Of a stretch of DNA of 35,029 nucleotides, positions 5,076 through 26,033 are shown piece by piece. Position 1 is the first letter of the stretch; each line of letters starts with the position of its first letter. Both the position numbers and the translations under genes were made by a program. The DNA comes from a virus (taxonomy: Duplodnaviria; Heunggongvirae; Uroviricota; Caudoviricetes): IMG/VR virus record IMGVR_UViG_2737471845_000031, positions 1-35,029 of that record; one strand, 5' to 3'. Below the pieces are notes generated by a model that made no database searches, was not told where the DNA came from, and worked only from the letters and a program-made list of their open reading frames with translations.

Positions 5076-5956
5076 ACACTCCTCGTCAGTATTCTGGCGG
5101 CCATTGCACTTAATCCCGGAGACATGCGGTTGAATGCTGTGCCGGCGGCGTTAAGCTGCCCGGAAACGGTATCCAGAGCACCTGCAATATTTCTTTTGTC
5201 CACACCACTCAGCGCCGACTGCGCCTGCTGTACATACGTGGCTGCCTCACTGGCTGTTCTGGCCAGACTGATGGCATCGGGCATGGATTCAGAGAGTGCA
5301 TTAAACGCCGGAATACTTTTCCCCAGAGCGCCGGATATATTACCCAGTCCGCTCATCAGTCCCGGCACACGGGTCAGCGCGACAACGGGGTTACCCTTCA
5401 TTTTCTGCGCCACCCGAACGGCACTGATAGTGGTCTGGAGTACAGACTGCGCCTGTTTCGCATAGTTGACGCCGTTACGGACGAACTGCGCCACCCCGGA
5501 AGGCGATGGAACAGCACCCGATACAGCTCCGGCACCGGGAACCTGCCTGCGTATTGCCGGCGGTTGCAGAGGATTTTTCGGGTCACCGGTGTATTCCCGG
5601 AGAGACACGGTGGCACTGACAGCCAGCACGTTACCGGTGCTGTCTGTCTGCTCGCTGGTTGCGGTCACATCGGTAATCACGAACCAGCCGCGATAGTCAC
5701 CGTTGCCGAAGACCAGCGCCAGTGCCTGATGGGCCTTCATGGCTGTTCGCACTCTCGCCAGCTCCACGTCGGGCACACAATAATGCTGATGGAAGACCAG
5801 GCTTATCTGGATTTCGTCCAGCCTGTCGCCGACAAACTGCAGGCCGGGTTTACCCTCGATGCGGGCATGCTCCGCATAATCGACGCCAAACGTGGCCTCG
5901 AAGCCGTCCCAGTAGGTAATCAGTTCAAACTCAATATCACCCAGTACGGCAAACAT
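5072..5956 (-). CDS. tail protein downstream of tape measure (Mu N / DNA-circulation-like position)
   Basis: 294-aa ORF directly after the tape measure gene with stop/start overlap; the Mu N position. Family assignment is tentative. Confidence 0.45.
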   Translation of the reverse strand: MFAVLGDIEFELITYWDGFEATFGVDYAEHARIEGKPGLQFVGDRLDEIQISLVFHQHYCVPDVELARVRTAMKAHQALALVFGNGDYRGWFVITDVTATSEQTDSTGNVLAVSATVSLREYTGDPKNPLQPPAIRRQVPGAGAVSGAVPSPSGVAQFVRNGVNYAKQAQSVLQTTISAVRVAQKMKGNPVVALTRVPGLMSGLGNISGALGKSIPAFNALSESMPDAISLARTASEAATYVQQAQSALSGVDKRNIAGALDTVSGQLNAAGTAFNRMSPGLSAMAARILTRSV

Positions 5957-22252: not shown

Positions 22253-22291
22253 GGAGACAGCATCACAAATACAGGGCGCGAAGGATTTTAA
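22253..22291 (-). promoter_or_regulatory. candidate activator-dependent late promoter and leader upstream of lysis genes
   Basis: Minus-strand TTAAAATC, 23 nt, CTGTCTCC, then ACCAGACAAGGAGACACAC-ATG; CTGTCTCC can pair with GGAGACA that includes the SD. Poor -35. Confidence 0.45.
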
Positions 22292-22363
22292 AGCGCGTTA
22301 AGAGAGCCGGGGATACGGGGTGTGCAGGATAAACGATGAATTATTCACAGAGGAGAATACGAT

Positions 22364-23107
22364 ATGACGCACACACTGAATCCGGTCATCACTGTCACTG
22401 TGTCCGGTCCTGTGGGCAGCGGTAAAAGTTACGTACTGGCGCGGATAGAAGAGATGGTGAAACAGGAACTCGGAAACAGCGTCATTGTCGATGCTGCTGA
22501 CGTGGAGAATGAGCGCCGTATGAGTGGCGATGATCTGACGACCTGGCAGAAGCCACGGGCTGGCACAGTGATCAGGCTGGAGGAATACACGGGACAGGGC
22601 CTGTTGTCATACGGCGAGGAGCGTATCTGTCGGACGAATGAGCTGCTGGATGTTATATGCCCCACGGGCCGGCAACCCTGGATACTGCCCGATGCACTGC
22701 ATGCCACCATTGCGGCACTGATGACAGTTTACGATCAGGAGCTGCTCATGAAGGAGTTACGTAAACTCGCTGGTCAGCCAACAGAATGTTTTTCGGCCCC
22801 GAAGTACGGGAAGCAGGAACACATCCCGGTGAACACAATCCCCGTTAACCAGCCTCCCCGGTTCTTCGACGAATACATTCTGACACCGGAAAATAAAGCT
22901 GAGCATGAAGAGATCAAAGCGGCGTTGTTCCGGGAAATCAGGAAGATTGCTGAAATGCAGCTGGAGGGCGGGCTGGACAGAGTGATGGCGAGAGGAGAAT
23001 GGGAATCGCTGTTTGAAAAAGTTTCCCCGGAATTGCTTCCCCTCGCACTGGCTATCGGGATTATGCAGACAACGGATAAACCTCACTTACGTTCATTAAA
23101 CACGTAA
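22364..23107 (+). CDS. hypothetical P-loop (Walker A) protein
   Basis: 247-aa ORF, ATG 22364 with AGGAGA RBS; N-terminal VSGPVGSGKSYVL Walker A-like motif; no further recognisable domain. Divergent from the late operon. Confidence 0.5.
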   Translation: MTHTLNPVITVTVSGPVGSGKSYVLARIEEMVKQELGNSVIVDAADVENERRMSGDDLTTWQKPRAGTVIRLEEYTGQGLLSYGEERICRTNELLDVICPTGRQPWILPDALHATIAALMTVYDQELLMKELRKLAGQPTECFSAPKYGKQEHIPVNTIPVNQPPRFFDEYILTPENKAEHEEIKAALFREIRKIAEMQLEGGLDRVMARGEWESLFEKVSPELLPLALAIGIMQTTDKPHLRSLNT

Positions 23108-23487
23108 CGCATAATCCGGGATACGCATTCAGCGATGACTGCATTTTCACCGGTTTTTACTGCATCCAGAAGCGACTCTTTAAATGGCACGGGCCGGGGC
23201 TGCAGAAAGGTCGGCATGGCATTGAGCAGACAGAGCGTTTTTTCCGTGAGGACGACATCAGCCGCTCCCACAGCCAGCAACTGAGAGTAACGAATATAGC
23301 TGTTATCCCGAAGCCATATCAGCGTATCAATAAAATACCGGCACTTTTTCTGGTCGTGATCAACCTGGTCCGGGATATCGAAAAAACCAGAATAAATCAA
23401 AACCTGAGGTACCGGATGCGTGTTCAGTAATCGGCAGAATATTTTGCCGGTGAGTACATAAAAATCATCATTTAAGGAGTGCATCAT
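23083..23487 (-). CDS. hypothetical protein, paralog B of the 23951-24331 gene
   Basis: 134-aa ORF filling the gap between flanking plus-strand ORFs. Alignable blocks with paralog A (IFCRLLNTHP ~ IFGRLYESFP, FIDTLIWLRDNSY ~ FLDTVDWLKNSGY, VVLTEKTLCLLNA ~ AVLTAKGLEVLNA). Confidence 0.45.
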   Translation of the reverse strand: MMHSLNDDFYVLTGKIFCRLLNTHPVPQVLIYSGFFDIPDQVDHDQKKCRYFIDTLIWLRDNSYIRYSQLLAVGAADVVLTEKTLCLLNAMPTFLQPRPVPFKESLLDAVKTGENAVIAECVSRIMRYVFNERK

Positions 23488-23701
23488 GAATCCCCGATTA
23501 ACGTTAACAGAACATCAGCGCCGTGCTGAAGCAGTGAACAATGTTCTGGAAGATATTATCCGGTTACATCGCGGAGAACTGAGTATCTGTCGTGCCACTG
23601 TTCATTTTCAGGAAATACAAAAGCAGTTTGATACTTCTGTTTTTGCAGAAGGGCTCACTTACGCCCTGGACCAGATAAGGTCAGAAAATCACCCCGGATA
23701 A
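23486..23701 (+). CDS. hypothetical small protein
   Basis: 71-aa ORF with AAGGAG RBS 6 nt upstream; its start overlaps the divergent paralog B start (CATG). It may instead be non-coding leader. Confidence 0.35.
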   Translation: MNPRLTLTEHQRRAEAVNNVLEDIIRLHRGELSICRATVHFQEIQKQFDTSVFAEGLTYALDQIRSENHPG

Positions 23702-23757
23702 TCCCTAAACCGCATTAACAGAAATCCCACTATCCCTGCCGCATCATGAAAGAACGA

Positions 23758-23785
23758 CCAGCCCGGCACCCGAAAGCCGGGCTGG
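23758..23785 (-). terminator. GC-rich hairpin (candidate minus-strand terminator)
   Basis: Perfect 10-bp inverted repeat CCAGCCCGGC / GCCGGGCTGG with 8-nt loop; minus-strand downstream sequence is TCGTTCTTTCATG. Confidence 0.4.
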
Positions 23786-23890
23786 CCATCGTCCCACAGG
23801 AATGCACTGTGAGCCGACCGAGGTTCAGTCAGTCTCGTGAGACCAGACTAGCCTGCCATATTTTTAATAATTGTAAAATGTTTACAGATT

Positions 23891-23992
23891 ATGAAAACGC
23901 AGACATTACCCATCGTTCCATGGATTGGTGGCAAACGCTGCCTTGCGATATTACATAAGACCACGAGACATATATTGCAGACCTATTCCTAG
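23891..23992 (+). pseudogene. diverged 5' remnant of a second Dam methyltransferase gene
   Basis: Encodes MKTQTLPIVPWIGGKRCLAILHK..., matching the Dam N-terminus MKEQSLPIVPWIGGKRRLAKHILPQ; stops after 33 codons and runs into the 3' end of the paralog A gene. Preceded by a ~90-nt leader ~70% identical to the leader of the intact dam. Confidence 0.5.
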
Positions 23993-24331
23993 AGTCTGGC
24001 TAACCAGTGATCGCAACGCTTCTTTCCCTTCAATTTTTATAGAGTCAGATATTCTGGCCCCCAACGGTTTTTCCAGACTTCCAGGCGTAGCGTTTAATAC
24101 CTCAAGACCTTTAGCCGTTAGCACTGCGTTGTGGATCCCCCCAGAACTACGCGCCCCGATTAAATAGCCACTGTTTTTAAGCCAGTCTACGGTATCAAGA
24201 AAAAAAGTAAGTTCATTCTGTCTAACGATATCAACTGCCTTTATATCAATTTTGACGGGGAAAGATTCGTAGAGTCTCCCAAATATCTCACCAACTATTT
24301 CATTAAACCGCTCAATATTTTTTGGGGCCAT
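23951..24331 (-). CDS. hypothetical protein, paralog A (possible winged-helix protein)
   Basis: Likely ~126 aa from ATG 24331 (GGGAG upstream); the ORF-track start at 24415 would cover a hairpin. Contains an LT-x-KG-like segment (AVLTAKGLEVL). Divergent from dam. Confidence 0.5.
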   Translation of the reverse strand: MAPKNIERFNEIVGEIFGRLYESFPVKIDIKAVDIVRQNELTFFLDTVDWLKNSGYLIGARSSGGIHNAVLTAKGLEVLNATPGSLEKPLGARISDSIKIEGKEALRSLVSQTLGIGLQYMSRGLM

Positions 24332-24378: not shown

Positions 24379-24411
24379 CATGAAAAGAGCGACTCACCTT
24401 GTGCAGCGAAC
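24379..24411 (-). terminator. hairpin (candidate minus-strand terminator or insulator) between dam leader and paralog A
   Basis: 13-bp inverted repeat GACTCACCTTGTG / CACAAGGCGAGTC (one mismatch) with 7-nt loop; minus-strand downstream sequence GCTCTTTTCATGTTATTTGC. Confidence 0.4.
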
Positions 24412-24525
24412 ACAAGGCGAGTCATCAACTTACAGGTATGAGCTGTGAGTCAACCGAGGCTCTTCCGTTCTCGAGAACAAGGGAAGCCTATCGCATTTTC
24501 ATCTAATGAAAAAGGCTTACAGATA

Positions 24526-25290
24526 ATGAAAGAACAATCTTTACCCATCGTCCCCTGGATTGGGGGAAAACGTCGTCTGGCCAAACACATTCTGCCTCAG
24601 TTCCCACTCCATACCTGCTATGTGGAGCCATTCTGCGGCGCAGCAGCACTTTATTTTCTCAAGACTCCCAGCAAGATCGAAGTCATTAACGATATCAACG
24701 GTGAACTGGTAAATCTGTATCGGGTAGTAAAGCATCATCTGGAAGAATTTGTCCGCCAATTCAAATGGGCGCTGGTTAGCCGGCAGATCTACAAATGGCT
24801 GCAGATCACCCCGGAAGAAACACTGACGGATATCCAGCGTGCGGCACGGTTCTACTACCTCCAGAAGCAGGCGTTTGGGGGCAAGGTGGCAGAGCACAGC
24901 TTCGGCACCTCCACCACCTCCCCGCCACGCTTCAACCTGCTACGGATTGAAGAAGAACTGTCAGCGGCACACCTGCGGCTTTCCAGAACGGTGATAGAAC
25001 ACATGGACTGGCACCAGTGCATTAAGCGTTATGACCGTCCGCACACGCTGTTCTACTGTGATCCGCCCTATCTGGGGACGGAAGGCTATGGTGTGGATTT
25101 TCCTGAAGAGAACTACACACTACTCGCAGAACTGGCACGGTGCATCAGAGGAAAGATGATTATCTCGGTGAATGACATTCCGCAGATGCGTCGGGTGTTC
25201 ACTGAACTGAACATACAGACGGTGAATATCAACTACAGTCTGGCGGGGAAACCCACGCCACGCCGTGAACTGGTAATCTGCAACTTCTGA
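24526..25290 (+). CDS. dam: DNA N6-adenine methyltransferase (Dam family)
   Basis: 254 aa from ATG 24526; N-terminus LPIVPWIGGKRRL, FCGAAAL SAM-binding-type motif and catalytic DPPY, as in Dam-family N6-adenine methyltransferases. No adjacent restriction endonuclease gene. Confidence 0.85.
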   Translation: MKEQSLPIVPWIGGKRRLAKHILPQFPLHTCYVEPFCGAAALYFLKTPSKIEVINDINGELVNLYRVVKHHLEEFVRQFKWALVSRQIYKWLQITPEETLTDIQRAARFYYLQKQAFGGKVAEHSFGTSTTSPPRFNLLRIEEELSAAHLRLSRTVIEHMDWHQCIKRYDRPHTLFYCDPPYLGTEGYGVDFPEENYTLLAELARCIRGKMIISVNDIPQMRRVFTELNIQTVNINYSLAGKPTPRRELVICNF

Positions 25291-25319
25291 ACAAAACCGG
25301 AAAGCACAATGCTTTCCGG
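25291..25319 (-). terminator. intrinsic terminator between convergent dam and repressor genes
   Basis: Perfect 10-bp stem CCGGAAAGCA / TGCTTTCCGG with 3-nt loop, followed on the minus strand by TTTTGT; sits right after the dam stop. Confidence 0.55.
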
Positions 25320-25405
25320 TAAACCAAACAACTTCCACTATGTCACTGGCGATGTTTTCTGAAAGCATCCAGATCAACCACGCGCCCTTTGTGTCCAGGT
25401 CAAAA

Positions 25406-25744
25406 TCAGCCTGCGAGTTTGCTTGGTTTGGGTTGAATGAAGACTTTGCCGACCTCAAGAATTGCCCTCCGTTGTTCGGGGCTCATTTCGTCGAATGCAT
25501 CCATTAACTCTTTCTTTTCTTGTGACACATAAGGTGCAACAACAGGCTGACTCCGCACCCCAGTAACTACATACAAAATATCTACACCGATTTCTGATAG
25601 TGCAGATAACTGCACTGCAGTAGGAGAAGTGCGATCTTTTTCCCAATCAATGAAAGTTCTCTTTGCCACACCTATAGCATCAGCCAACCCTTGCTGTGTA
25701 AGAGATAGACGCTCTCTTTCTTCTTTAATACGTAACCCGATCAT
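25406..25744 (-). CDS. XRE-family HTH lysogeny repressor
   Basis: Likely 113 aa from ATG 25744; HTH region LSLTQQGLADAIGVAKRTFIDWEKDRTSP. Divergent from the early operon, as for Mu c/ner. The ORF-track start 25897 would overlap the early gene by 53 nt. Confidence 0.75.
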   Translation of the reverse strand: MIGLRIKEERERLSLTQQGLADAIGVAKRTFIDWEKDRTSPTAVQLSALSEIGVDILYVVTGVRSQPVVAPYVSQEKKELMDAFDEMSPEQRRAILEVGKVFIQPKPSKLAG

Positions 25745-25768
25745 GTGAGTTTTTCTGCACTCTTTAAG

Positions 25769-25797
25769 TTGACTGGTGAGATAATCTGCACCATAAT
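25769..25797 (+). promoter_or_regulatory. early promoter (sigma70-like) with candidate operator repeats
   Basis: TTGACT (25769-25774), 17-nt spacer, CATAAT (25792-25797), ~47 nt upstream of the first early gene. TCTGCAC occurs twice (25754, 25785) and ATAATCT twice. Confidence 0.55.
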
Positions 25798-25844
25798 CTA
25801 TCACACATAAGGCAAACATCATTGCATCAACAAAGGAGACAACG

Positions 25845-26033
25845 ATGACTGCAGAACAAGTCAAAGCTCTCTTCCGCCAGCGCGGGATCACTTTCACCCG
25901 CTGGGCAGAAGAAAACGGCTACAACCGCAATGAGGTATACCGCGTTCTCAATGGGCAGACCAAAGCCCGTTACGGTAAATCCCATGAAATCGCCGTGAAG
26001 TTGGGGCTGAAATCAACAGCTCAGGCAGCCTGA
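25845..26033 (+). CDS. Cro/Ner-like small DNA-binding regulator
   Basis: 62-aa ORF, AAGGAG RBS 6 nt upstream, first gene of the early operon divergent from the repressor; helical basic protein. Confidence 0.55.
   Translation: MTAEQVKALFRQRGITFTRWAEENGYNRNEVYRVLNGQTKARYGKSHEIAVKLGLKSTAQAA

Follow-up and report, generated by a model that had tools for sequence, protein, structure and literature searches.

The question raised by this locus is what is modified by a DNA methyltransferase encoded beside the immunity repressor of a transposable prophage, and at which stage of the phage life cycle such modification would occur. The window, by which is meant the whole 35,029-nt stretch of DNA that was analyzed (IMG/VR record IMGVR_UViG_2737471845_000031), is a BcepMu-like (BcepMu-type), Mu-like transposable prophage of E. 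coli, in which the gene order of BcepMu is recognizable as Mor, gp16, Gam, an ExeA-like B protein, an rve transposase, a ner-like gene, the repressor, a variable slot, holin/SLT lysis genes, and Mu-type head and tail genes. The closest phage record is PhiKM, classified as Bcepmuvirus, and the prophage of E. coli M-17 is 99.985% identical to that of the window. The methyltransferase gene lies in the variable slot, with the lysis cassette on one side and the immunity repressor gene on the other, outside the late operon and opposite to it in direction (Table 1). As had been noted from the sequence alone, it is convergent with the repressor gene, from which it is separated by a 115-bp spacer. We propose, with a probability of roughly 0.6, that it encodes a lytic-phase anti-restriction orphan D12 methyltransferase which probably acts on adenine N6 and probably at a site other than GATC.

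Table 1. Features of the methyltransferase locus (positions are those of the window)
Feature	Position	Strand	Evidence and remarks
Degenerate duplicate of the 5′ part of the cassette	23748..23957	+	tblastn, blastn, direct repeat D1, alignment A2
Conserved intrinsic terminator, immediately upstream of the methyltransferase leader	24380..24424	-	15-bp stem and U-tract; -26 kcal/mol (minus) versus -19.3 (plus)
Conserved leader of the methyltransferase gene, ~100 nt	24425..24525	+	Alignment across genera
Methyltransferase CDS, 254 aa, alpha-class/D12 DNA amino-methyltransferase	24526..25290	+	ORF, Pfam, PADLOC, PGAP, AF2
W-I-G-G-K N-terminal motif, motif X region, residues 11-15	24556..24570	+	G13 and K15 invariant in family; aligns with EcoDam KWAGGK
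F-C-G-A-A, AdoMet-binding motif I, residues 36-40	24631..24645	+	G38 invariant; fits F-x-G-x-A
Target-recognition hairpin equivalent, residues 117-136, FGGKVAEHSFGTSTTSPPRF	24874..24933	+	HMMER alignments, column composition, pLDDT 81-87
D-P-P-Y, catalytic motif IV, residues 179-182	25060..25071	+	Invariant across 81 homologues
GC-rich hairpin, 11 bp, between the convergent methyltransferase and repressor genes	25296..25320	.	Fold -19.2 (minus) and -17.6 (plus) kcal/mol; z -4.7 and -6.8
Immunity repressor gene, HTH_3/DicA-like	25406..25864	-	Pfam, NCBIfam, PGAP; homologous to BcepMu gp17

A predicted intact D12 amino-methyltransferase

The open reading frame runs from an ATG at 24526 to a stop codon at 25288 to 25290, and its product is identical to RefSeq WP_000664223.1, annotated by PGAP as “DNA adenine methylase” in E. 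coli M-17 with exactly the same coordinates. An alternative in-frame GTG at position 24445 would lengthen the protein by 27 codons; the ATG is taken as the start because homologues comprise 254 to 256 amino acids and the Pfam match begins at residue 11. This match, to PF02086 (MethyltransfD12), extends over profile positions 1 to 248 of 253 (E=1.1e-27; 97.8 bits against a cut-off of 22 bits), and the protein also matches phrog_56 (329 bits) and the PADLOC MTase_II profile PDLC03253 (374 bits). The order of its motifs is that of the alpha class, namely, GxK (X), FxGxG (I), the target-recognition region, and (D/N)PP(Y/F) (IV). All 10 columns that are invariant in an 81-member family alignment (G13, K15, G38, D56, E158, D170, D179, P180, P181, and Y182) are retained, no catalytic residue being disrupted, and the earlier description of a complete gene with a DPPY motif thus holds.

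The AF2 model of the protein (pLDDT, 92.3; pTM, 0.90) displays a Dam-type fold, with Foldseek matches to EcoDam and DpnM at E values of 6.5e-18 to 3.1e-16 and TM scores of 0.77 to 0.81; by enzyme, the TM scores are 0.79 to 0.81 for EcoDam, 0.79 for both DpnM and M.CbeI, and 0.68 to 0.70 for T4Dam. The gene is, on these features, predicted to encode an intact, AdoMet-dependent D12 DNA amino-methyltransferase.

Relationship to Dam and the GATC question

The assignment of the gene to the Dam family in the sequence-only reading stands in the loose D12/alpha-class sense but not in the strict one. The product attains 112.8 bits against the NCBIfam model TIGR00571 (“dam”), a borderline score below the cut-off of 114.85, and 65 bits against the Dam equivalog NF008152, for which the cut-off is 441; its identity to EcoDam, M.CbeI, and DpnM is 24%, 26%, and 31%, respectively. 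In EcoDam, residues K9, Y119, N120, L122, R124, and P134 participate in the reading of GATC, and the fourth base pair is no longer discriminated once R124 is mutated (PMC4417163). Five of these are replaced in the window enzyme (K9 by P10, N120 by G118, L122 by K120, R124 by A122, and P134 by S132), while Y119 is conservatively changed to F117; the column that holds Ala122 is variable. The equivalent of the recognition hairpin is without the FNG-L-x-R...FNVP signature of GATC/GATATC enzymes, is three residues shorter than those of Dam and DpnM, and equals that of M.CbeI in length. Besides Dam and DpnM, the FNG..R..N...FNVP signature is carried by M.EcoRV as well.

As the residues with which EcoDam, T4Dam, and DpnM read GATC are absent, the specificity of the enzyme is probably non-GATC, and on sequence criteria it lies outside the Dam family sensu stricto in both its score and its GATC-reading positions. 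Position 120 is occupied by K or R in 76 of 98 sequences, and a basic residue here could stand in for EcoDam R124. Loss of the EcoDam contact residues is in itself no proof of another target, the first-base-pair contacts of T4Dam and EcoDam already being partly different. The phage contains fewer GATC sites than expected (observed/expected, 0.58), which speaks, although as a weak argument, against reliable self-methylation of this site; as a clue to the target, palindrome statistics of the phage returned only generic depletion of CTAG and GATC.

It is unlikely, though the best placed of the alternatives, that the enzyme is instead a GATC-specific Dam paralogue which tops up host Dam on rapidly replicating or transposing phage DNA, where full GATC methylation would avoid MutH nicking, or which serves Dam-less hosts. 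Its best sequence and structure matches do include the GATC enzymes DpnM and EcoDam, its TIGR00571 score falls just 2 bits short, relatives are automatically annotated as “Dam” or “DpnIIA,” and GATC methylases are carried by many phages of Dam+ hosts, including T2, T4, T1, and P1. Against this stand the replaced equivalents of R124, N120, L122, P134, and K9, the missing signature, the shortened hairpin, and the depletion of GATC, as well as the TT01 methylome study discussed below, in which GATC is given to the prophage enzyme plu2942 and a “?” to plu3449, the ortholog of the window gene. E. coli K-12-type hosts are Dam+, and a GATC-specific gene would therefore be largely redundant there.

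Regulatory signals and expression in the lysogen

The terminator upstream of the leader retains its position in prophages of E. coli, Klebsiella, Photorhabdus, Xenorhabdus, Brenneria, and Mixta, with compensatory changes in 8 of 17 pairs, and is read as a terminator of the opposite strand because its fold is stronger on the minus strand. The hairpin between the convergent genes precedes a minus-strand T-run and is for this reason regarded as the terminator of the repressor transcript; it probably also ends the methyltransferase mRNA. The leader itself contains a dyad, TACAG-N7-CTGTG (24431 to 24447), the palindrome GTTCTCGAGAAC, and an AAGCCT...AGGCTT pair which flanks the Shine-Dalgarno sequence. 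A structured 5′ untranslated region or known RNA was considered for the leader and rejected, since no Rfam family is matched, the fold is weak and barely exceeds that of shuffled sequences (z = -1.96), and the strong hairpin favors the minus strand.

The degenerate duplicate comprises a terminator hairpin (approximately 23756 to 23787), a dyad (23795 to 23811), a leader, and the truncated beginning of a methyltransferase gene (ATG at 23891, with 19 matching codons), this 5′ copy lying 635 bp upstream of the intact gene. An inserted phrog_2266 gene (23951 to 24331, minus strand) is flanked by the duplicate and the intact cassette, and a dyad search located CACAG-N7-CTGTG in just the two leader copies. 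Because the promoter search yielded neither a sigma-70 consensus upstream of the methyltransferase gene nor meaningful 9-mers common to the leader and other intergenic regions, the timing of expression is something we infer.

Such timing is suggested by plu3449 (M.PluTORF3449; 256 aa; BX470251, positions 4059699 to 4060469) of Photorhabdus laumondii/luminescens TT01, an 83% identical ortholog and the sole member of the family with published data. It occupies the same syntenic position in a BcepMu-like prophage, between holin/SLT lysis genes and the early operon of HTH repressor and rve transposase, the TT01 locus differing in that no extra accessory genes lie between holin and methyltransferase. 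In uninduced cultures, the expression of plu3449 was <0.001x that of gyrB in each of three growth phases; it is listed as solitary with the target “?,” and the eight methylation motifs of TT01 are all attributed to other enzymes, none to plu3449, with target predictions taken from REBASE (PMC6092372). The “?” entered for so close an ortholog agrees with the earlier caution that target specificity is not readable from sequence, while the suggestion, made at the same time, that the gene could act in regulation is disfavored for the lysogen by the silence of plu3449 and by its lack of an attributed motif.

For the same reasons, it is quite improbable that the gene functions in lysogenic conversion, that is, that it is expressed from the prophage and methylates the host chromosome, thereby reprogramming host expression or guarding against incoming restriction-modification elements. 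Such a function would suit a gene that adjoins the immunity repressor, lies outside the late operon, and possesses its own conserved leader, and orphan methyltransferases such as Dam and CcrM can be epigenetic regulators. The ortholog at the same genomic position nevertheless adds no motif to the TT01 methylome, and any repressor-strand transcript that reads past the hairpin at 25296 to 25320 would be antisense to the gene until it reached the terminator at 24380 to 24424.

Target base

The product of the reaction is probably N6-methyladenine, an assignment that follows the family majority. The gene had been described from its sequence as an N6-adenine methyltransferase; the DPPY-bearing D12 enzyme is borne out, and the adenine is an extrapolation, since an about equally close DPPY relative, M.CbeI, makes N4-methylcytosine (m4C). 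M.CbeI (PDB 7M6B) is a D12 enzyme with a DPPY motif (PMC3425538, PMC8616854), and with the family profile it is matched at an E value of 8e-36, between DpnM (3.5e-38) and EcoDam (5e-34). The window enzyme is not more closely related to M.CbeI than it is to the enzymes that act on adenine.

That it might be an N4-cytosine methyltransferase of the alpha-class, DPPY-bearing M.CbeI/DmtB type is regarded as very improbable. This possibility gains something from the profile values, from an identity to M.CbeI that slightly exceeds that to EcoDam (26% versus 24%) together with the TM score of 0.79, from a hairpin that aligns gap-free with that of M.CbeI (FSGTVDSGGYS versus FGGKVAEHSFG) where Dam and DpnM require a three-residue insertion, and from M.CbeI having itself been misannotated earlier as an adenine enzyme of the D12 type. 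The alpha-class m4C enzymes described so far number just two, both of which are GGCC specific, whereas D12 enzymes overwhelmingly produce m6A; the identity shared with M.CbeI is low, with no specific clustering, and the related phiE125 gp27 is reportedly an adenine methylase.

Orphan status and mobility of the cassette

The sequence-only reading had found no partner endonuclease in the window, and this observation was upheld. Among the four neighboring ORFs, no nuclease was detected by Pfam, NCBIfam, or PADLOC, nor was there a defense match, and PGAP annotates no endonuclease in the M-17 prophage, which is 99.985% identical. In 80 loci with homologues of 62 to 88% identity, the genes that flank the methyltransferase most closely on either side hardly ever recur from one locus to the next; baseplate, tail-fiber, and terminase genes are the only neighbors seen repeatedly, and comparative context across these loci revealed no restriction partner. 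The methyltransferase is an orphan, without a recognizable cognate endonuclease that adjoins it or is co-conserved with it.

There is accordingly little reason to see in it the modification half of an unrecognized restriction or defense module formed with the P-loop protein encoded at 22364 to 23107 and two phrog_2266 paralogues, a remote prospect. The adjoining ORFs are without a Pfam, NCBIfam, PHROG, or PADLOC function assignment, one of them has a Walker-A motif (GPVGSGKS; weak AAA_30 match), and Type II endonucleases are often missed by HMM detection, all of which would accommodate such a module. These neighbors are not, however, conserved with the methyltransferase: the TT01 gene lies directly beside the holin gene with none of these ORFs, KP12 is without the P-loop and phrog_2266 ORFs, no neighbor family co-occurs in the 80 loci, and the ORFs sit on alternating strands.

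The orphan methyltransferase gene, together with its terminator and conserved leader, constitutes a mobile cassette, or moron, in the variable slot between the repressor gene and the lysis/late operon. In BcepMu this slot holds other genes (gp18 to gp20), PhiKM, KP12, and TT01 carry the methyltransferase gene beside differing neighbors, and Burkholderia phages of the phi1026b type harbor 65% identical copies after their lysis genes. Least probable of all is an inactive relic, for which the silence of plu3449 in the one lysogen studied and the truncated 5′ copy upstream might be cited, given a full-length ORF with every invariant residue kept, a conserved leader, homologues of 62 to 95% identity over many genera, and the presence of the gene in 528 E. 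coli genomes.

Comparison with characterized modification systems

EcoDam, DpnM (M1.DpnII), and T4Dam, the GATC-specific alpha-class N6-adenine methyltransferases with solved structures, resemble the window enzyme in Pfam family, fold, and motif order (WxGGK, FxGxG, DPPY), and Dam and T4Dam are likewise orphans. Chromosomal Dam differs in that the window gene is prophage borne and its ortholog is silent in the lysogen. M.CbeI and DmtB share with it the D12 fold, the DPPY motif, a near-equal hairpin length, and an F-[SG]-G-x-V pattern, at similarity scores on a par with those of Dam. M.CbeI, by contrast, belongs to a restriction-modification pair (with CbeI), originates from a thermophile, and methylates cytosine in GGCC, and the mutual identity of M.CbeI and DmtB is 57% versus the 26% between the window enzyme and M.CbeI.

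Hia5, Hin1523, and Nma1821 are non-specific adenine methyltransferases encoded at the mom position of Mu-like prophages of Haemophilus and Neisseria (PMC3299994). Like the window enzyme, enzymes of the Hia5 type are orphan DPPY enzymes of Mu-like transposable phages without mom, with a presumed role in broad protection from restriction. The family was compared through a proxy, the com-linked SuMu gp53, which is taken to be a Hia5 member from its position and host; only the DPPY and GxK motifs are common to it and the window enzyme (E=0.008), and it attains only 23 bits against PF02086. No com-like ORF lies upstream of the methyltransferase gene, which is situated in the central slot and not at the genome end, and a Hia5/Hin1523-type enzyme replacing mom was rejected on the proxy comparison and the absence of com.

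M.EcoGII and M.EcoGI are, similarly, prophage-encoded orphan adenine methyltransferases, and M.EcoGII is also silent in the lysogen. These enzymes and ORF17 of VHML differ from the window enzyme in being of the beta class, with DPPY N-terminal to FxGxG and the Pfam domain N6_N4_Mtase; no PF01555 match was obtained for the window enzyme. A relationship to M.EcoGII/M.EcoGI was rejected on account of this domain order, as was one to VHML ORF17, the “life-cycle regulator” Dam, an N6_N4_Mtase protein of the beta class.

Mom of Mu is a probable functional analogue, being a DNA modification enzyme of a transposable phage that shields progeny from restriction. It differs in its acyltransferase fold, its N6-acetamido-adenine product, and its control by Com, C, and Dam/OxyR, with neither homology nor a common regulatory architecture.

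Proposed role and distribution

As a lytic-phase anti-restriction enzyme, the methyltransferase would be produced only after prophage induction, a timing that the single ortholog in uninduced cultures suggests. With AdoMet as methyl donor, it would methylate a flipped base on its exocyclic amino group, most likely adenine N6, and would act on replicating phage DNA ahead of packaging, such that progeny genomes might reach new hosts already protected against methylation-sensitive restriction systems. By analogy, this role would parallel that of Mom in Mu and of Hia5/Hin1523 in the Mu-like phages of Haemophilus, the enzyme being unrelated to these at the subfamily level.

A more far-reaching proposal, which we put forward tentatively as possible rather than probable, is that the family represents a third alpha-class D12 branch with a short, M.CbeI-like hairpin that reads a non-GATC target, and that it constitutes a lytic-phase device of broad anti-restriction function parallel to Mom and Hia5. 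Were this so, the target could be a specific motif that is new, one that is short or relaxed, or even cytosine N4, and the enzyme would serve prophages of the BcepMu-like type, and many of the P2- or lambda-like types, in both Dam+ and Dam- Proteobacteria.

The gene is of a common phage kind to which the standard annotation pipeline already gives a name, its class having been known for decades, and it may be regarded as a routine phage moron encoding an ordinary orphan methyltransferase. It is present in 528 of 5,426 complete E. coli genomes (~10%), homologues of 62 to 95% identity occur in many genera, and the family, which is prophage borne and spread over the Proteobacteria, comprises 635 clusters at E<=1e-30 in a library of 50%-identity representatives. 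Very common though it is in enterobacterial and betaproteobacterial prophages, a recognition sequence has been assigned to no member, and the automatic label “Dam/DNA adenine methylase” claims more than the sequence features support. Practical interest is modest, but definition of the target would fill a gap in the annotation of prophage methylomes and could account for part of the host-range behavior of BcepMu-like phages; if its specificity is relaxed, the enzyme might become an additional tool of the Hia5/M.EcoGII kind.

An intact D12-class methyltransferase in the repressor-holin slot

From position 620 to 35029 the window is 99.985% identical to a prophage of E. coli M-17 which interrupts otsA, with uspC and flhD adjoining, and its nearest phage record is Escherichia phage PhiKM, classed in Bcepmuvirus. 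Positions 1 to 619, containing the 3′ part of a tail-fiber-region gene on the minus strand, fail to align with the M-17 prophage and represent a swapped host-range module. The gene order is BcepMu-like, with a Mor-family activator, gp16, Gam, an ExeA-like B protein, an rve transposase and a ner-like gene on one strand, and a divergent HTH repressor, followed on the repressor strand by the holin, the SLT endolysin and Mu-type head and tail genes. The slot between repressor and holin, occupied in BcepMu by the unrelated genes gp18-20, houses the methyltransferase gene in this prophage, as it does in PhiKM, KP12 and Photorhabdus TT01, although the companion genes differ. The sequence-only reading had placed this gene correctly; it is real and, because it lies on the strand opposite to that of the repressor and late genes, convergent with the repressor.

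The encoded protein matched PF02086 (D12 class N6-adenine DNA methyltransferase; Pfam) over profile positions 1 to 248 of 253 (E = 1.1e-27; score 97.8 bits, gathering threshold 22). An alternative in-frame GTG would lengthen it by 27 residues; the ATG is taken to be the start because homologs measure 254 to 256 residues and the profile match begins at residue 11. A PGAP coding sequence with exactly the same coordinates is annotated as a "DNA adenine methylase" (WP_000664223.1). Invariant columns, as defined by alignment with 80 homologs of 37 to 89% identity, are all retained (G13, K15, G38, D56, E158, D170, D179, P180, P181 and Y182). The earlier claim of a complete DPPY methyltransferase is therefore borne out by a full-length frame with DPPY and every invariant residue present, and the disruption of catalytic residues, which would have spoken against it, was not seen in this alignment. 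What is shown is an intact alpha-class protein, predicted to act as an AdoMet-dependent DNA amino-methyltransferase.

Features of the methyltransferase region (window nucleotides unless residues are stated)
Feature	Position	Strand	Remarks
Holin-upstream element	22281-22308	-	TAAAAT -10-like hexamer; -35 poor
247-aa protein, phrog_3787	22364-23107	+	Walker-A motif GPVGSGKS
Paralog, phrog_2266	23083-23487	-	repressor-lysis slot
71-aa protein, phrog_4490	23486-23701	+	
Terminator-like hairpin	23748-23790		
Degenerate cassette duplicate	23748-23957		direct repeat of 24380-24581
Dyad CACAG-N7-CTGTG	23795-23811		copy in the duplicate leader
Paralog, phrog_2266	23951-24331	-	repressor-lysis slot; function unknown
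Hairpin with U-tract (leader-proximal terminator)	24380-24424	-	directly upstream of methyltransferase leader; hairpin also delimited as 24390-24424
Dyad CACAG-N7-CTGTG	24431-24447		copy in the methyltransferase leader
Alternative GTG start	24445	+	
Methyltransferase, 254 aa	24526-25290	+	ATG at 24526; stop at 25288-25290
W-I-G-G-K	residues 11-15	+	
AdoMet motif F-C-G-A-A	residues 36-40	+	
DPPY	residues 179-182; 25060-25071	+	
11-bp GC-rich hairpin	25296-25320		T-run on - strand; between methyltransferase and repressor stops
Repressor ORF (PGAP)	25406-25864		
Suggested repressor start	25744		ATG; 112 aa
Sigma-70-like promoter	25769-25797	+	TTGACT-17-CATAAT
ner-like gene start	25845		ATG

Target base and target sequence

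Family profile searches matched DpnM (3.5e-38), M.CbeI/7M6B (8e-36), EcoDam (5e-34) and T4Dam (2e-12). Against the AF2 model of the protein (pLDDT 92.3), Foldseek TM values were 0.79 for both DpnM (m6A in GATC; 31% identity over part of the protein) and M.CbeI (m4C in GGCC; 26%), 0.79 to 0.81 for EcoDam (m6A in GATC; 24%) and 0.68 to 0.70 for T4Dam (m6A in GATC); EcoDam and DpnM are 31% identical to each other. In NCBIfam the protein scored 112.8 on TIGR00571 "dam" (cut-off 114.85) and 65 on the Dam equivalog NF008152 (cut-off 441), and it is Dam in a loose sense only.

In EcoDam, K9 and Y138 read the first base pair, L122 and P134 contact the third, and R124 touches the guanine of the fourth, where discrimination is lost in R124A, while Y119 intercalates and N120 hydrogen-bonds (PMC4417163). 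High-posterior HMMER alignments place P10, F136, K120, S132, A122, F117 and G118, respectively, at these positions. Within the recognition region only F117, G118/G119, K/R at 120 and F126-G127 are family-conserved, and a three-residue insertion is required to align it with those of Dam and DpnM, whereas that of M.CbeI (FSGTVDSGGYSQQSFENRF) aligns without one. The enzyme is, as judged from these replacements, without the GATC-reading apparatus. GATC occurs 94 times in the phage against 163 expected under a maximal-order Markov model of the whole window (observed/expected, 0.58), which suggests, though weakly, that the phage does not depend on GATC methylation of its own. CTAG is still rarer (0.47, GATC being second), and GGCC stands at 0.77.

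M.CbeI, likewise alpha-class and with DPPY, had been labeled an adenine methylase, yet its product is N4-methylcytosine in GGCC (PMC3425538, PMC8616854). DPPY and D12 membership thus fix neither "GATC" nor, strictly, "adenine," in agreement with the earlier statement that the target cannot be read from sequence. Adenine is the most probable target base, since nearly all characterized D12 enzymes make m6A. As for the label "Dam-family N6-adenine," assignment to the D12 class stands, but strict Dam membership does not, given the missed cut-offs and replaced contact residues, and with M.CbeI making m4C the label exceeds the evidence.

Other phage-encoded methyltransferases were also considered. 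The nonspecific Hia5/Hin1523 enzymes take the place of mom downstream of com in Mu-like prophages of Haemophilus and Neisseria (PMC3299994). Membership of this kind was ruled out, as the methyltransferase linked to com in Haemophilus phage SuMu, taken as a proxy for that family, has only the DPPY segment in common with the protein (E = 0.008) and no com-like gene was found upstream of the methyltransferase gene; the SuMu enzyme itself scores 23 bits on PF02086, barely at the Pfam threshold. Kinship with M.EcoGII, M.EcoGI and VHML ORF17 was likewise rejected, all three being beta-class. With respect to all of these enzymes, the methyltransferase is at most a functional analog, not a member.

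Orphan status and distribution

The four neighboring ORFs, whose products include divergent phrog_2266 paralogs (27.5% identity), are of unknown function in PHROGs; the phrog_2266, phrog_3787 and phrog_4490 proteins returned no matches in Pfam, NCBIfam or PADLOC, nuclease, restriction and defense families included, and are candidate superinfection-exclusion or defense morons. PGAP annotation of the M-17 prophage names no endonuclease. The family was further assessed at 80 loci encoding 62 to 88% identical proteins in Gamma-, Beta- and Deltaproteobacteria (one genome per species, all ORFs within 3.5 kb clustered). The nearest gene was unique or near-unique upstream in ~60 and downstream in ~68 of these loci, and the sole recurrent neighbor families were baseplate wedge/J-like (18 loci), tail fiber (16), large terminase (12) and gpI-like baseplate (11) proteins, of which the tail fiber and both baseplate families were always upstream and co-oriented. 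With neighbors mostly unique or near-unique apart from these phage genes, the family is prophage-borne, mobile between phage types and devoid of a conserved partner. The absence of a partner endonuclease, noted earlier, thus holds across the neighbors, the PGAP annotation and the 80 loci, and the gene is shown to be an orphan, horizontally mobile as a cassette.

In lambda-like Burkholderia phi1026b-type phages the family gene comes after the lysis genes. In many betaproteobacterial prophages (loci L016-L087, e.g., L049, L062, L063, L067 and L074) it closely follows baseplate/tail-fiber genes in the same orientation, an end-of-late-operon placement like that of mom in Mu, whereas enterobacterial BcepMu-like prophages use the central slot. 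The gene is carried by 528 of 5,426 complete E. coli genomes (≥80% nucleotide identity), and HMMER retrieved 635 clusters at E ≤ 1e-30 from 1.84 billion representatives. Searching of representatives also returned proteins of 813 to 2,505 aa (P0123, P0143, P0148, P0151, P0180, P0228 and P0252) with two to four tandem methyltransferase-like stretches of 27 to 34% identity, which appear to be multi-methyltransferase fusions; such fusions occur on plasmids and jumbo phages.

Terminators, leader, and neighboring promoters

The leader-proximal terminator (-26 kcal/mol as minus-strand RNA versus -19.3 on the plus strand) occupies the same position in prophages of six genera (E. coli, Klebsiella, Photorhabdus, Xenorhabdus, Brenneria and Mixta), with diverged stem sequences and compensatory double changes in 8 of 17 pairs; in TT01 the methyltransferase and the holin promoter region adjoin it on either side. 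It is read as an intrinsic terminator which halts repressor-strand transcription ahead of the late (lysis) promoter region, and its probable effect is to shield the late promoter from transcripts that run on out of the repressor operon. Transcription of that kind would also be antisense to the methyltransferase gene. Three intrinsic-terminator-like hairpins lie on the repressor/late strand between the repressor and the lysis cassette.

Downstream of this terminator, a leader of ~100 nt is conserved across genera and contains the dyad, a 12-bp palindrome with co-varying halves, and AAGCCT...AGGCTT around the Shine-Dalgarno sequence. The dyad, nearly invariant across genera, may constitute a regulator-binding site. 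Within the window it is confined to the two leader copies, with 0 and 1 mismatch; three further sites with one mismatch are probably fortuitous. Searches of the leader for a sigma-70 consensus promoter, an Rfam family or a convincing RNA fold were negative. The second dyad belongs to a degenerate duplicate of the 5′ part of the cassette, in which the minus-strand terminator, the dyad and the leader are followed by ~19 initial codons (MKTQTLPIVPWIGGKRCLA...). Both copies (72% over 97 to 142 nt) bracket the inserted phrog_2266 gene at 23951-24331 and resemble a scar left when a cassette inserted or recombined; PhiKM, KP12 and TT01 have no such scar.

The element upstream of the holin, GGATTTTAAAG(C/G)GCGTTAAGAG, recurs at ~5805-5826 of the comparison locus L090; prophages of E. 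coli, Photorhabdus, Xenorhabdus, Brenneria and Mixta have all conserved it, and it is probably an activator-dependent lysis/late promoter. The best sigma-70-like promoter of the region (10 of 12 matches) faces the ner-like gene from within the 5′ end of the annotated repressor, a position which suggests that the true repressor start is the internal ATG, with the HTH beginning near the N terminus.

A silent ortholog and the proposed role

The Photorhabdus homolog CAE15823.1 (P0337 in our searches; BX470251.1, 4059699-4060469) has coordinates identical to those given for plu3449 in the TT01 methylome study (PMC6092372). It shares 83% identity with the window protein and has the same genomic place, flanked on one side by holin and SLT genes and on the other by an HTH repressor, an IclR-like gene, an rve transposase and an AAA protein. 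In that study plu3449 is solitary, within prophage region P80 and with its target given as "?"; its expression was <0.001× that of gyrB in exponential, late-exponential and stationary phase, and all eight methylated motifs were assigned to other enzymes (PMC6092372). As this ortholog, the methyltransferase is thus shown to be silent in at least one lysogen, and this silence, together with the lack of a credited motif, speaks against a function in the lysogen before induction. It is compatible with, though no proof of, expression confined to the induced state, as is reported for M.EcoGII.

The cautious interpretation offered earlier is largely right and the finding an ordinary one; what has been gained is that "Dam-family N6-adenine" is too strong a label for an enzyme lacking GATC-reading apparatus, not of the Hia5/M.EcoGII kind and with an ortholog silent in the lysogen. 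We propose that, following prophage induction, the methyltransferase would act on phage DNA as it replicates, and incidentally on that of the host, methylating a short motif, probably not GATC, and that packaged genomes would then be protected, on entering the next host, from methylation-sensitive restriction.
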